Positions 8,238 through 43,469 of a stretch of DNA of 64,000 nucleotides are shown here, one piece after another. Below the pieces are notes generated by a model, which did no database searches, was not told where the DNA came from, and saw only the letters and a list, made by a program, of their open reading frames with translations. Position numbers and translations under genes: made by a program. The DNA is taken from assembly GCF_055900595.2 (NCBI RefSeq), contig NZ_CM148325.1. One strand, written 5' to 3'. Positions within the stretch are counted from its first letter, which is position 1; every line of letters begins with the position of its first letter.

Positions 8238-8375
8238 CGTGTAATGGCTGCATGAAATAAACAATAAAATATAAATAACATTATCAGCCTGCCGACGGCT
8301 TGAAGAGAGTCACAGTATCTTGTGCAACATTATTGGAAAGAGTGAGGGGGCGAGGTAGCGAAGCGGAAAAATGTT

Positions 8376-8481
8376 AAAAAAAAGCCCATCGTGGGAGATG
8401 GGCAAAGACTACACACAGCAATTCGTTGTTTCACTCAGGGGATTTCCATGCTTATAAATCAATATGTTGATTTATAACCGT
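8376..8481 (-). ncRNA. rprA: RprA small regulatory RNA (rpoS translational activator)
   Basis: Minus-strand sequence ACGGUUAUAAAUCAACAUAUUGAUUUAUAAGCAUGGAAAUCCCCUGAGUGAAACAACGAAUUGCUGUGUGUAGUCUUUGCCCAUCUCCCACGAUGGGCUUUUUUUU recognised as RprA; ends in a GC hairpin plus U8 terminator; located between ydiK and ydiL. Confidence 0.9.
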
Positions 8482-14054: not shown

Positions 14055-14177
14055 GGCTTAGCTTTATGAGACTATTCTTATCGCCCCTTCGAGCTAAGCC
14101 ACTGTGAGTGCCGGAGATAAGCGCCGGATGGGGTAGAAACCCTTAAGCCTGTGATGCACAGACTTAAGGGTTTTCTT
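14055..14177 (+). ncRNA. Candidate small RNA locus ending in a strong intrinsic terminator (position matches rydB; sequence not verified)
   Basis: Nested inverted repeats (gcttagc/gctaagc, cttatc/gataag) followed by an 11-bp perfect stem aaacccttaag/cttaagggttt and a T-tract; about 220 nt downstream of ydiH and 290 nt upstream of sufA. Confidence 0.35.
14137..14177 (+). terminator. Rho-independent terminator (11-bp perfect stem plus T-tract)
   Basis: aaacccttaag-N15-cttaagggtttt followed by cttatttc; U-tract only on the + strand. Confidence 0.7.
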
Positions 14178-39064: not shown

Positions 39065-39997
39065 ATGTGGTCAGAATATTCACTCGAAGTTGTTGATGCG
39101 GTAGCGCGTAATGGTAGTTTTAGCGCTGCAGCCCAGGAGTTGCATCGCGTTCCTTCTGCGGTCAGCTATACCGTGCGTCAGCTGGAAGAGTGGCTGGCGG
39201 TGCCTCTGTTTGAACGACGTCACCGTGATGTGGAACTGACCGCTGCCGGGGCGTGGTTTCTCAAAGAAGGGCGCTCTGTTGTCAAAAAAATGCAGATCAC
39301 TCGGCAGCAATGTCAGCAGATAGCGAACGGCTGGCGCGGTCAGTTAGCTATCGCAGTGGATAATATTGTCAGGCCAGAACGTACACGGCAGATGATCGTT
39401 GATTTTTATCGCCATTTTGATGATGTCGAACTTCTTGTCTTTCAGGAAGTGTTCAACGGTGTCTGGGATGCGCTTTCCGACGGGCGCGTGGAACTGGCGA
39501 TTGGCGCAACACGCGCGATTCCGGTAGGCGGTCGTTATGCCTTCCGGGATATGGGGATGCTAAGCTGGAGTTGCGTTGTTGCCAGCCACCACCCGCTGGC
39601 GTTGATGGATGGCCCGTTCAGCGATGATACGTTGCGCAACTGGCCGTCATTGGTGCGCGAAGACACCTCGCGAACGCTACCTAAACGTATTACCTGGTTG
39701 CTGGATAACCAAAAAAGACTTGTCGTGCCTGACTGGGAATCATCGGCAACCTGTATCTCGGCAGGATTATGCATAGGGATGGTGCCAACACATTTCGCCA
39801 AACCGTGGCTTAATGAGGGGAAGTGGGTAGCATTAGAACTGGAAAACCCCTTTCCGGATTCGGCATGTTGTCTGACATGGCAGCAAAATGATATGTCGCC
39901 TGCGTTAACCTGGTTGCTTGAGTATCTCGGCGATAGTGAGACGCTGAATAAGGAGTGGCTGCGGGAGCCGGAAGAGACTCCCGCAACGGGTGATTAA
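39065..39997 (+). CDS. punR: LysR-family transcriptional regulator (310 aa), formerly ydhB
   Basis: N-terminal LysR HTH; divergent from punC; 3' end overlaps convergent purR by 4 nt. Confidence 0.8.
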
Positions 39998-41019
39998 CGA
40001 CGATAGTCGCGGAACGGGCCGTCAGCCACGGAGCGGCGTTCAATCAACCGCGGATGCACTTCAATGGACTGCGGTTCTTCACGTTTGTTGACGATACGAT
40101 CCAACAGCATGTTGAACGCTGTTTCACCCAGCGAATCTTTTGGCTGATGGATCGTGGTCAGCGCCGGCGTAAAATAGCGGGCGTTGCGCACGTTATCATA
40201 ACCGATCAGCGAAACATCCTGTGGGACGCGCAGACCCATTTCATCAGCAGCACAAAGTGCGCCCATTGCCATGATATCGCCACCACAGAAGACGGCAGTA
40301 GGGCGATGCGGCTGCGACAGTATTTGCTGCATGGCGCGATAACCGGATTCAGGTTCAAAGTCACCCTGTACAATCCAGCTTTCTGGCACCTTGATCATCG
40401 CTTCTTCCATCGCCTTCATAAAACCGGCAAGGCGGCCTGCGCCAGTGTTACGTTCCAGCGGGCCGGGGATAACGCCGATTTCGCGGTGACCGCGTTCAAT
40501 CAGATAACGCCCGGCCATGTAGCCGCCTTCGAACGCGTTATCAATGACCGCATCGGTGAAGTCAGCTTTTGCTTCACCCCAGTCCATTACCACCATTGGG
40601 ATATGGCGATACTCTTCCAGCATCGCCAGCAACGGCTCTGGGTACTCAGAACACATCACCAGCAGACCATCGACGCGTTTTTGCGCCATCATCGACAGAT
40701 AAGCCCGCTGTTTCTCAAGATTGTTCCACGCATTACCCAGAATCAGGGTGTAACCTTTCTGGAAGCAATTTTTTTCAACCGCTTCAATGATCTCGGCAAA
40801 ATAGGCCGCTTCGCTGCTGGTCGCCAGCAAACCGATAGACTTGGTGTGGTTAACCTTCAGGCTACGCGCCACCGCGCTAGGGGAGTAGTGTAATTCTTTA
40901 ATCGCTGCCCACACGGCGTTGCGCGTTTCTTCAGCGACGAAACGTGTTTTGTTGATGACGTGTGACACAGTTGTAGTGGAAACGTTTGCTCGTTTCGCTA
41001 CATCTTTTATTGTTGCCAT
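39994..41019 (-). CDS. purR: purine repressor, LacI family (341 aa)
   Basis: [36 protein letters not shown]... recognised as PurR. Confidence 0.95.
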
Positions 41020-41063
41020 TCCATTTCACTCCAGACCCTAACTTCAGCTCCTGCAAAATCGCA

Positions 41064-41079
41064 AGGTAAACGTTTGCCT
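41064..41079. promoter_or_regulatory. PurR operator-like site (aGGTAAACGTTTGCCt) in the purR leader
   Basis: Matches the pur-box core GCAAACGTTTGC at 11/12 positions; about 45 bp upstream of the purR start; purR is autoregulated. Confidence 0.55.
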
Positions 41080-41317
41080 TTACACACCTTACGCACAACA
41101 AAAGTGTTGCGGTACGCCGGAAAAACGACACGGAGCGTCAGGAAGGGGTCAATGGCCAGTACGCAAATAGTGTAAGCGTGGAATTTTGGCCGATCTTGAC
41201 GAAAAGGGGAAGTGGTAAAAACACTTATCATTATAAATGACGGGAGATTTTTTCATCACAGTGTGTAAAAATGCGTAATATCACTTTTTGTGTGGTAATA
41301 AAAAAGGAGAAAACTTG

Positions 41318-41407
41318 ATGAGCACCGACCTTAAATTTTCACTGGTAACAACGATTATCGTCCTCGGTTTGATCGTAGCCGTGGGTTTGACTGCCGCGCT
41401 GCACTGA
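41318..41407 (+). CDS. ynhF: 29-aa hydrophobic small membrane protein (MSTDLKFSLVTTIIVLGLIVAVGLTAALH)
   Basis: ATG at 41318 preceded by AAAAAGGAGAAAA RBS; single TM helix; followed by hairpin cgagggag/ctccctcg; absent from the ORF track because it is under 60 aa. Confidence 0.75.
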   Translation: MSTDLKFSLVTTIIVLGLIVAVGLTAALH

Positions 41408-41572
41408 TTTCCTCTCGAGGGAGCGCGTTCTCCCTCGCATCTCCTTCCTGTTTGTTAGCAAAATGGCAAAAGTGTTTTCTCTTTTTGTTATTTTCATTTT
41501 TTTGTGATTGCTGTCATGCTTTCGCCACTTTAATGAATATCGCGTAATGACGCGAAGAGGTGGAGATAAGGC

Positions 41573-42742
41573 ATGAAAATTAACTATCCGTTGCTGGCGC
41601 TGGCGATTGGCGCGTTTGGTATCGGGACAACGGAGTTCTCGCCAATGGGCTTGTTGCCCGTCATTGCGCGCGGTGTGGATGTCTCGATTCCCGCTGCCGG
41701 AATGTTAATCAGTGCCTATGCAGTTGGCGTAATGGTGGGCGCGCCGCTGATGACGCTTCTACTTTCTCATCGTGCCCGCCGCAGTGCGTTGATTGTCCTG
41801 ATGGCGATTTTCACGCTTGGCAACGTACTTTCCGCCATCGCGCCGGATTATATGACCCTGATGCTTTCACGCATTTTGACCAGCCTGAATCACGGAGCAT
41901 TTTTTGGTTTGGGTTCAGTTGTGGCCGCAAGCGTGGTGCCAAAACATAAACAGGCCAGCGCAGTTGCCACTATGTTTATGGGGTTAACCCTGGCAAATAT
42001 CGGTGGTGTTCCGGCGGCGACCTGGTTGGGTGAAACCATCGGCTGGCGGATGTCATTTCTGGCAACGGCGGGGCTGGGCGTGATTTCAATAGTAAGTCTG
42101 TTCTTCTCATTACCTAAAGGTGGCGCAGGGGCGCGACCTGAAGTGAAAAAAGAGCTGGCGGTATTAATGCGTCCGCAGGTGCTGTCTGCATTGCTGACGA
42201 CGGTGCTGGGAGCTGGCGCCATGTTTACCCTCTACACCTATATCTCTCCGGTACTGCAAAGTATTACCCACGCAACACCGGTGTTCGTCACGGCAATGCT
42301 GGTGCTGATTGGTGTCGGGTTCTCTATTGGGAACTATCTCGGCGGCAAACTGGCAGATCGTTCAGTTAACGGCACGTTGAAAGGCTTTTTGTTGCTGCTG
42401 ATGGTGATTATGCTGGCAATCCCGTTCCTGGCCCGCAATGAGTTCGGCGCAGCTATTAGCATGGTGGTGTGGGGAGCTGCAACCTTTGCGGTCGTACCGC
42501 CGTTACAGATGCGCGTGATGCGTGTCGCCAGTGAAGCGCCTGGTCTGTCTTCATCAGTCAATATTGGTGCCTTTAATCTTGGAAATGCGCTGGGAGCAGC
42601 TGCTGGTGGTGCGGTAATTTCCGCTGGGCTGGGATACAGTTTTGTGCCGGTGATGGGGGCGATTGTCGCGGGACTGGCATTATTGCTGGTGTTTATGTCA
42701 GCCAGAAAACAACCTGAGGCAGTTTGCGTTGCCAACAGCTAA
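41573..42742 (+). CDS. ydhP: MFS transporter (389 aa)
   Basis: 389-aa 12-TM ORF; synteny between purR and sodB. Confidence 0.85.
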   Translation: MKINYPLLALAIGAFGIGTTEFSPMGLLPVIARGVDVSIPAAGMLISAYAVGVMVGAPLMTLLLSHRARRSALIVLMAIFTLGNVLSAIAPDYMTLMLSRILTSLNHGAFFGLGSVVAASVVPKHKQASAVATMFMGLTLANIGGVPAATWLGETIGWRMSFLATAGLGVISIVSLFFSLPKGGAGARPEVKKELAVLMRPQVLSALLTTVLGAGAMFTLYTYISPVLQSITHATPVFVTAMLVLIGVGFSIGNYLGGKLADRSVNGTLKGFLLLLMVIMLAIPFLARNEFGAAISMVVWGAATFAVVPPLQMRVMRVASEAPGLSSSVNIGAFNLGNALGAAAGGAVISAGLGYSFVPVMGAIVAGLALLLVFMSARKQPEAVCVANS

Positions 42743-42887: not shown

Positions 42888-43469
42888 TTATGCAGCGAGA
42901 TTTTTTGCTACGAATTCCCAGTTCACCAGCGCCCAGAAGTGCTCCAGATAGCCAGGACGTGCATTGCGATAGTCGATGTAATAAGCGTGTTCCCAGACAT
43001 CAACGGTCAGCAGTGGAGTCGCATCGGTGGTCAGCGGAGTACCCGCGTTAGAGGTTGAAACGATAGCCAGTTTGCCATCGCTGTTTTTCACCAGCCAGGT
43101 CCAGCCAGAACCAAAGTTTTTGATTGCTGCATCAGTAAACTGTGCTTTGAAATCGGCAAAGCTGCCAAAAGATGCGGCGATAGCTTCAGCGACTTTTCCA
43201 GTTGGTTCGCCACCCGCGTTCGGTGCCAGGCAGTTCCAGTAGAAAGTATGGTTCCAGACCTGAGCTGCGTTGTTGAATACGCCACCTTCAGAGCTGCGAA
43301 TAATCTCTTCCAGTGATTTACCTTCAAACGCGGTACCTTTAATCAGGTTGTTCAGGTTAGTGACATAAGTCTGATGATGCTTGCCGTAGTGATACTCGAT
43401 GGTTTCCGCAGAAATGTGCGGTGCCAGAGCATCTTTAGCATATGGTAGTGCAGGTAATTCGAATGACAT
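42888..43469 (-). CDS. sodB: iron superoxide dismutase (193 aa)
   Basis: [36 protein letters not shown]... recognised. Confidence 0.97.

Follow-up and report, generated by a model that had tools for sequence, protein, structure and literature searches.

The 29-codon open reading frame between purR and ydhP is almost certainly the cydH gene (ynhF, cydY) of Escherichia coli, a gene which is already known and the product of which has a solved structure. The window, as the whole analysed stretch of 64,000 nucleotides is called below, carries this gene together with its ribosome-binding site, a conserved stem-loop and a mapped RNA 3' end. An earlier note, made from the letters of the sequence, had named the frame ynhF and placed it between purR and ydhP. 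Both points are borne out by RefSeq annotation and by the identity of the peptide to chain H of the PDB entry 6RKO, and no evidence against the cydH identity was found in this analysis. In our opinion, the case of cydH is a positive control, in which a reading of sequence recovered a real 29-codon gene missed by size-filtered lists of open reading frames.

Identity of the peptide

The frame opens with ATG at 41318-41320 and closes with TGA at 41405-41407, and its translation, obtained by direct reading of the sequence, is MSTDLKFSLVTTIIVLGLIVAVGLTAALH. The corresponding features are as follows.

41318..41407, plus strand: cydH (ynhF, cydY) coding sequence of 29 codons and TGA, for a single-transmembrane accessory subunit of cytochrome bd-I
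41301..41313, plus strand: ribosome-binding site AAAAAGGAGAAAA, read directly, with GGAG at 41306-41309, 8 nt before the ATG

Chain H of 6RKO, which bears the name [quoted passage not shown], agrees with the peptide at each of its 29 residues (100% identity), and the same sequence was found in 8 PDB entries. The NCBIfam model NF033411 was matched with 50.2 bits (cutoff 30), and residues 1-29 fall on profile positions 1-29 of 29; no Pfam family was matched by the peptide. The RefSeq label "cydH: cytochrome bd-I accessory subunit CydH" was given in 10 out of 10 cases among the matches listed. The intergenic region was found in 5425 out of 5426 complete genomes of E. coli, and the cluster of CydH proteins at 90% comprises 163 members, named YnhF or CydH.

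The protein of 6RKO and NF033411, known as CydH, CydY or YnhF, shares with the frame considered here its sequence, length, position between purR and ydhP and N-terminal motif MSTDLKFSL. No difference from this subunit of E. coli bd-I was found, so that the two are the same gene. The suggestion that such an ORF would be missed by annotation is correct for size-filtered ORF tracks and in the historical sense, but it does not describe the present state, when cydH is routinely annotated by RefSeq and a dedicated NCBIfam model exists.

The reading frame and its surroundings

The gene is flanked by purR (39994-41019, minus strand) and ydhP (41573-42742, plus strand), in agreement with RefSeq; ydhP lies on the same strand as cydH, 165 nt downstream. 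Further neighbours in the ORF list are PunR (39065-39997, plus strand) and SodB (42888-43469, minus strand). The cydH frame itself was given in this program-made list as a TTG-started ORF of 39 amino acids (41288-41407). This upstream extension is not conserved, and 1-nt indels separate the genera in the region of the ribosome-binding site.

As many as 526 ATG-started ORFs of 20-50 amino acids were counted in the 64-kb window, and length alone does not set the cydH ORF apart from chance. A strong Shine-Dalgarno sequence (SD) combined with a Kyte-Doolittle mean of at least 2.0 in a 19-residue window was found in cydH only, among all these short ORFs; its value is 2.53, for residues 10-28. The peptide had been described beforehand as hydrophobic with a single transmembrane segment, in accordance with this value and with the transmembrane helix seen in the structure. 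The 90-nt ORF, its strong ribosome-binding site and the hairpin that trails it (cgagggag/ctccctcg) were likewise all seen where the earlier note had put them. That the ORF and the hairpin are real follows from conservation and from the mapped RNA 3' end, not from size or folding energy.

Conservation of the frame

An exhaustive profile-free search with a 30-amino-acid query in 1.84 billion representative proteins (E <= 0.001) gave 27 relatives, all of them YnhF-like, with the consensus MSTDLKFSLxTTxIVLGLIVAGGLTAALH. At the DNA level, one genome per species was scanned, which provided 80 loci from Enterobacteriaceae, Erwiniaceae and Enterobacillus. The ATG, exactly 29 codons and the stop are kept without exception in the 80 loci, and the purine core of the SD (GGAG or GGGG) is found with equal spacing in nearly all of them.

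Among 78 distinct cydH DNA sequences, the numbers of variable columns at the first, second and third codon positions are 23, 11 and 28, respectively. The pN/pS ratio is 0.21 in the cydH frame vs 1.07 and 1.79 for the two remaining ones. Judged by these comparisons of sequences, the cydH frame, and no other frame there, is under purifying selection. Conservation of the reading frame in related species had been named in advance as a test of the proposed gene, and the frame passed it, being kept in 80 of 80 species with the above pN/pS ratio.

Function in cytochrome bd-I

In their cryo-EM study of the E. coli bd oxidase, Thesseling et al. 2019 (PMC6853902) came upon an unexpected fourth subunit, which LC-MS/MS identified as YnhF. 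By the same paper, the gene has ydhP and purR as its neighbours and is not part of the cydABX operon. As stated in the literature, ynhF was reported in 2008 and was shown to encode a membrane protein with production at low oxygen. The 2019 article also notes, partly citing earlier work, that YnhF is produced at low oxygen and retains its N-formyl-Met, which is reported as detected by mass spectrometry. The heterotetramer CydA/CydB/CydX/CydH was seen again in later high-resolution structures, and intact formylated CydH was detected by top-down mass spectrometry (PMC12529367). Reviews (PMC8951039, PMC12648545, PMC8585947) locate CydH in the cleft between the transmembrane helices TM1 and TM9 of CydA, over heme b595, and state that bd-II and the mycobacterial enzymes are devoid of CydH. 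Cytochrome bd-I is an enzyme targeted by antibiotics.

Thus, the existence of CydH, its formyl-Met and its site in several cryo-EM structures are established facts, and its production at low oxygen has been reported. For the gene of this window, the association with CydAB is taken over from the cryo-EM and mass spectrometric papers on the E. coli protein of identical sequence. Translation of cydH from the ATG at 41318 gives 29 residues, almost wholly in the form of one transmembrane helix. By this identity, the protein would be the fourth subunit of cytochrome bd-I ubiquinol oxidase, bound in the CydA cleft between transmembrane helices 1 and 9. At this site, it would cover heme b595 and shut the membrane-side O2 route known from the Geobacillus enzyme, and O2 would reach heme d by a narrower channel originating in CydB.

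The latter step follows the proposal of PMC6853902 that YnhF plugs the O2 entry cavity which is in use in the Geobacillus enzyme and that O2 comes to heme d via a narrower channel from CydB. Channel blocking as the role of CydH is what the authors of the structure papers infer. It stays at the level of structural inference, since no cydH deletion phenotype was found in the literature searched on cytochrome bd-I.

Several other small proteins resemble CydH in one respect or another. CydX, AppX and CydS are also small single-transmembrane proteins (CydX has 37 amino acids) sitting on CydA or AppC, and they were also missed by early annotation. However, CydX is encoded in the cydABX operon, whereas CydH is the product of an orphan gene elsewhere in the genome. 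CydX occupies the opposite side of CydA (TM1, 5 and 6) and is needed for assembly and stability, whereas CydH at TM1/TM9 is thought to gate the access to heme b595. No sequence similarity between CydH and CydX, AppX or CydS was detected, as there was no Pfam match and the library search gave relatives of the YnhF type only.

Regulators of the MgtS, AcrZ and MgrB type share with CydH the tiny size, the single transmembrane segment, the binding to a larger membrane protein and the accumulation under a specific condition, which is low oxygen in the case of CydH. Unlike them, CydH is resolved as a constitutive structural component of the enzyme as purified, and no evidence of its switching the activity or stability of a partner on a signal was found in the literature searched. 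Small membrane proteins of this kind had been said in the earlier note to be often regulatory. Such a role is not the one known for CydH (CydY), which is a stoichiometric accessory subunit of cytochrome bd-I.

The purR-cydH spacer, a candidate promoter and regulation

In all 80 loci, cydH is divergent from purR, typically at a distance of ~297 bp. In nearly all Enterobacteriaceae, the spacer measures ~295-300 bp; that of Erwiniaceae has 280-400 bp. Downstream, ydhP is absent in Salmonella, in a metagenome-assembled genome (MAG) of a Pluralibacter sp. and in all Erwiniaceae (loci L004, L029 and L071-L081). Since purR always adjoins divergently and ydhP is missing in these groups, gene order indicates that cydH is tied to the control region of purR and not to ydhP. 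In Salmonella and in that Pluralibacter MAG, sodB directly follows cydH.

The spacer (41020-41317) is unusually conserved, the mean column identity being 78% across 16 genera, and contains invariant blocks. With this column identity, it is more conserved than the synonymous sites of cydH (pS 0.64). The following elements were located in it.

41066-41079, purR strand: PurR/GalR operator AGGCAAACGTTTAC, matching the operator listed in PMC5110547
41184-41189: invariant ATTTTG, tentatively a purR -10 element on the minus strand, opposite to cydH
41264..41272, plus strand: candidate extended -10 element TGTAAAAAT (TGn + AAAAAT) for cydH, placed by conservation and not mapped

The TG and AAAAAT parts of the last element are invariant in 16 genera, and the intervening "n" varies between T and C. 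Counted from the ATG, the motif TGnAAAAAT is at -53/-54 in 65 of the 81 sequences compared (80 loci and the window) and at -51 in four others; at the equivalent place, Erwiniaceae have TGTGGGAAAAT. A scan with the sigma-70 consensus revealed no plus-strand promoter upstream of cydH, and TGnAAAAAT lacks a -35 match. From its conservation, we infer that TGnAAAAAT may be the extended -10 promoter of cydH, with a predicted start near 41279.

A local scan of 41080-41330 upstream of cydH gave no convincing sites of FNR, CRP, ArcA, PurR or Fur. The best FNR-like matches in this interval had 2-3 mismatches, one of them overlapping the start codon. Neither ynhF nor purR is mentioned in the ArcA ChIP supplements. 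Elsewhere in the window, at 24159-24172 on the plus strand, the pattern scan found a perfect FNR consensus, TTGATAACGATCAA, with 0 mismatches.

Among the rows next to ynhF in the Term-seq table, "orphan" 3' ends are given in the purR 5' UTR, at window positions 41087 and 41030 on the minus strand (MG1655 1737776 and 1737833). One such end, situated ~8 nt upstream of operator O1 of PurR, would fit a repressor roadblock to elongation.

The hairpin and the 3' end of the cydH RNA

Two features mark the end of the cydH transcript.

41416..41437, plus strand: 8-bp stem-loop CGAGGGAG-CGCGTT-CTCCCTCG, conserved, marking the 3' end of cydH mRNA
41441, plus strand (MG1655 1737422, minus strand): dominant RNA 3' end of ynhF/cydH by Term-seq, 4 nt after the stem

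The arms of the stem occupy 41416-41423 and 41430-41437, enclose a 6-nt loop and form 6 G-C pairs of 8. The folding energy is -13.7 kcal/mol in a 56-nt context, with z = -1.24 vs shuffled sequences, and is by itself unremarkable. The core GGGAG/CTCCC is invariant in 68 distinct Enterobacteriaceae sequences, in a tabulation anchored on this core. It is missing in Atlantibacter, Enterobacillus, the Enterobacterales MAG L071 and most Erwiniaceae, which have other hairpins or none. A similar stem, GGGAGGAGC/GCTCCTCCC, is present in three Erwiniaceae loci (L075-L077), and two Erwinia loci carry canonical T-runs after cydH.

A covariance model of the stem was matched at an unchanged offset in 64 sources (63 loci and the window), and 90.7% of cells in the resulting alignment are paired vs 62-76% with the partner column slid. 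Double changes were found at three pairs, and one pair shows the series A-U (31), G-U (18) and G-C (11). The covariation score is 0.213 vs 0.170 for shuffles, and none of 500 shuffles reached 0.213. By these measures of aligned sequences, the hairpin is conserved and its covariation is modest. The same model also matches, with 26-28 bits, two places ~2.5 kb from cydH on the opposite strand (L075:5524-5569 and L076:3393-3438, both minus). These two extra Erwinia matches may be an unrelated combination of a stop codon and a stem.

With regard to the features of an intrinsic terminator, the GC-rich stem-loop is present and the 3' end is situated a few nucleotides after the stem. A U-rich tract after the stem is absent, the tail being CATCTCCTTCCT, and the terminator scan made no call. 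Across 68 sequences, the tail usually has 3-4 T in 10 nt, with 7.5 of 10 nt being pyrimidine. The cydH stem therefore fails one defining feature of intrinsic terminators, its tail being pyrimidine-rich and not U-rich.

In supplementary file 1 of Adams et al. 2021 (Term-seq, PMC7815308), a "primary" 3' end of ynhF is given with 655,382 and 662,064 reads in the two conditions considered. The position 41441 was assigned from the sequence column of this table (50 nt upstream, the end itself and 10 nt downstream), the flank corresponding to 41391-41451 of the window; the RNA ends in ...CUCCCUCGCAUC-3'. The count is very high for this table, in which SgrS has 6,222. Together, the conserved stem and the Term-seq end 4 nt further on show that the stem delimits a short and abundant cydH RNA on its 3' side. 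As the hairpin has no U-tract, the end at 41441 may arise either by RNA polymerase termination or by exonuclease trimming.

On this basis, cydH would be a short monocistronic unit of ~160 nt. Its transcription would proceed from the extended -10 promoter at 41264-41272, back to back with the purR promoter. The transcript would finish at the stem-loop 41416-41437 with the mapped end at 41441.

Could the hairpin instead attenuate read-through from cydH into the transporter gene ydhP, the two genes forming an operon? The same orientation of ydhP at 165 nt is in favour of this, as is the lack of a U-tract, which could make termination leaky. However, the stem is retained in Salmonella and the Pluralibacter sp. 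MAG, where ydhP is lacking, and this persistence makes an attenuator role for ydhP unlikely. In addition, Erwiniaceae, which lack ydhP too, possess unrelated GC-rich hairpins behind the stop codon of cydH, with T-runs in two cases. The 3' end mapped at the hairpin is very strong, a natural strain has IS1 between the hairpin and ydhP, and a separate conserved palindrome with a T-rich region also lies between them.

The strain in question is E. coli PCN061 (L082:828-1525), in which an IS1A element separates the cydH hairpin from ydhP and cydH is intact. The palindrome, GCAAAA-N3-TTTTGC (window 41466-41479), is found ~50-80 nt after the cydH stop in the loci L004-L070 and is exact in 51 of 82 sequences. 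It is degenerate in E. coli (GCAAAAGTGTTTTC) and may be an operator of ydhP.

Possible functions of the cydH RNA

Besides serving as the message of CydH, the abundant RNA of ~160 nt might be a dual-function riboregulator, or its 3' element might be a protein-binding or stability switch setting the CydH:CydABX stoichiometry. Such a wider reading is suggested by the abundance, by the conserved U-poor 3' stem-loop (GGGAG/CUCCC) and by the spacing from purR that is fixed across two families, but it is, in our estimation, quite improbable.

Its more specific form, in which the mRNA both encodes CydH and acts as a base-pairing or protein-titrating riboregulator, is very improbable. For an mRNA, ~655,000 3'-end reads is a very high number, compared with 6,222 for SgrS in the same table. 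The core of the 3' stem-loop is invariant, reads from Hfq co-immunoprecipitation (co-IP) are present, and a paper on RNase G ties the ynhF mRNA to 5'-end processing by this enzyme. Yet the Hfq enrichment is marginal (1.7x), there is no U-tail for Hfq, and no target or phenotype is known. A short mRNA that is stable and encodes a stoichiometric subunit accounts for the abundance just as well.

The STnc550 family of Rfam

The locus also falls within a match to a family of small RNAs.

41020..41410, plus strand: Rfam RF02081 "STnc550 sRNA" (cmscan 396.5 bits, GA 48, model positions 1-388 of 388)

This span extends from the base adjoining the purR ATG to 3 nt past the cydH stop, and the mapped 3' end at 41441 is outside the model. 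The model is without structure across the ORF part. In its 5' part, it covers DNA that belongs to purR on the other strand, namely the 5' UTR, operator and promoter. In the source study (Sittka et al. 2008), the coordinates given for STnc470-STnc640 represent entire intergenic regions. STnc550 (purR/sodB) had 6 control vs 10 Hfq co-IP reads (1.7x) there, and its Northern was negative. The Northern probe for STnc550 is antisense to codons 16-21 of the Salmonella cydH.

That the locus is an Hfq-associated non-coding sRNA, STnc550, with an incidental ORF, is extremely improbable, although the cmscan score of 396.5 bits over 41020-41410 belongs to a family typed "Gene; sRNA" and cDNA reads of the purR-cydH intergenic region occur in Salmonella Hfq co-IP libraries. 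Purifying selection acts in the cydH frame alone, and the CydH protein has been observed directly. The STnc550 coordinates are those of the whole intergenic region, with 1.7x enrichment (6 vs 10 reads) and a negative Northern, the probe of which lies inside the cydH ORF. Finally, the RF02081 model is unstructured over the ORF and lies with its 5' part over purR regulatory DNA.

The gathering threshold of the family is passed and the full model is matched, but what was found here is a translated ORF rather than a discrete non-coding transcript. The family represents an intergenic candidate and not a demonstrated sRNA, and its conserved content is the cydH ORF together with purR/cydH regulatory DNA. 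The RF02081 span consists of the DNA between purR and cydH together with the cydH ORF, with no separate non-coding RNA. The family looks mis-typed, and annotation based on Rfam will mislabel the protein-coding cydH locus as an sRNA.

A chance open frame with no gene in it, which the plentiful short ORFs of the window (526 of 20-50 amino acids) could bring to mind, is refuted by conservation and by structural and proteomic evidence, and its probability is practically nil.

Other Rfam matches in the window

The scan of the whole window with Rfam gave several further matches.

8374-8481, minus strand: RprA
14083-14141, plus strand: RydB
32273-32346 and 32354-32427, minus strand: two tRNA genes
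32146-32308, plus strand: match to "HPnc0260 antisense RNA", overlapping one tRNA gene on the opposite strand

The last of these matches is probably an artefact of the HPnc0260 family.
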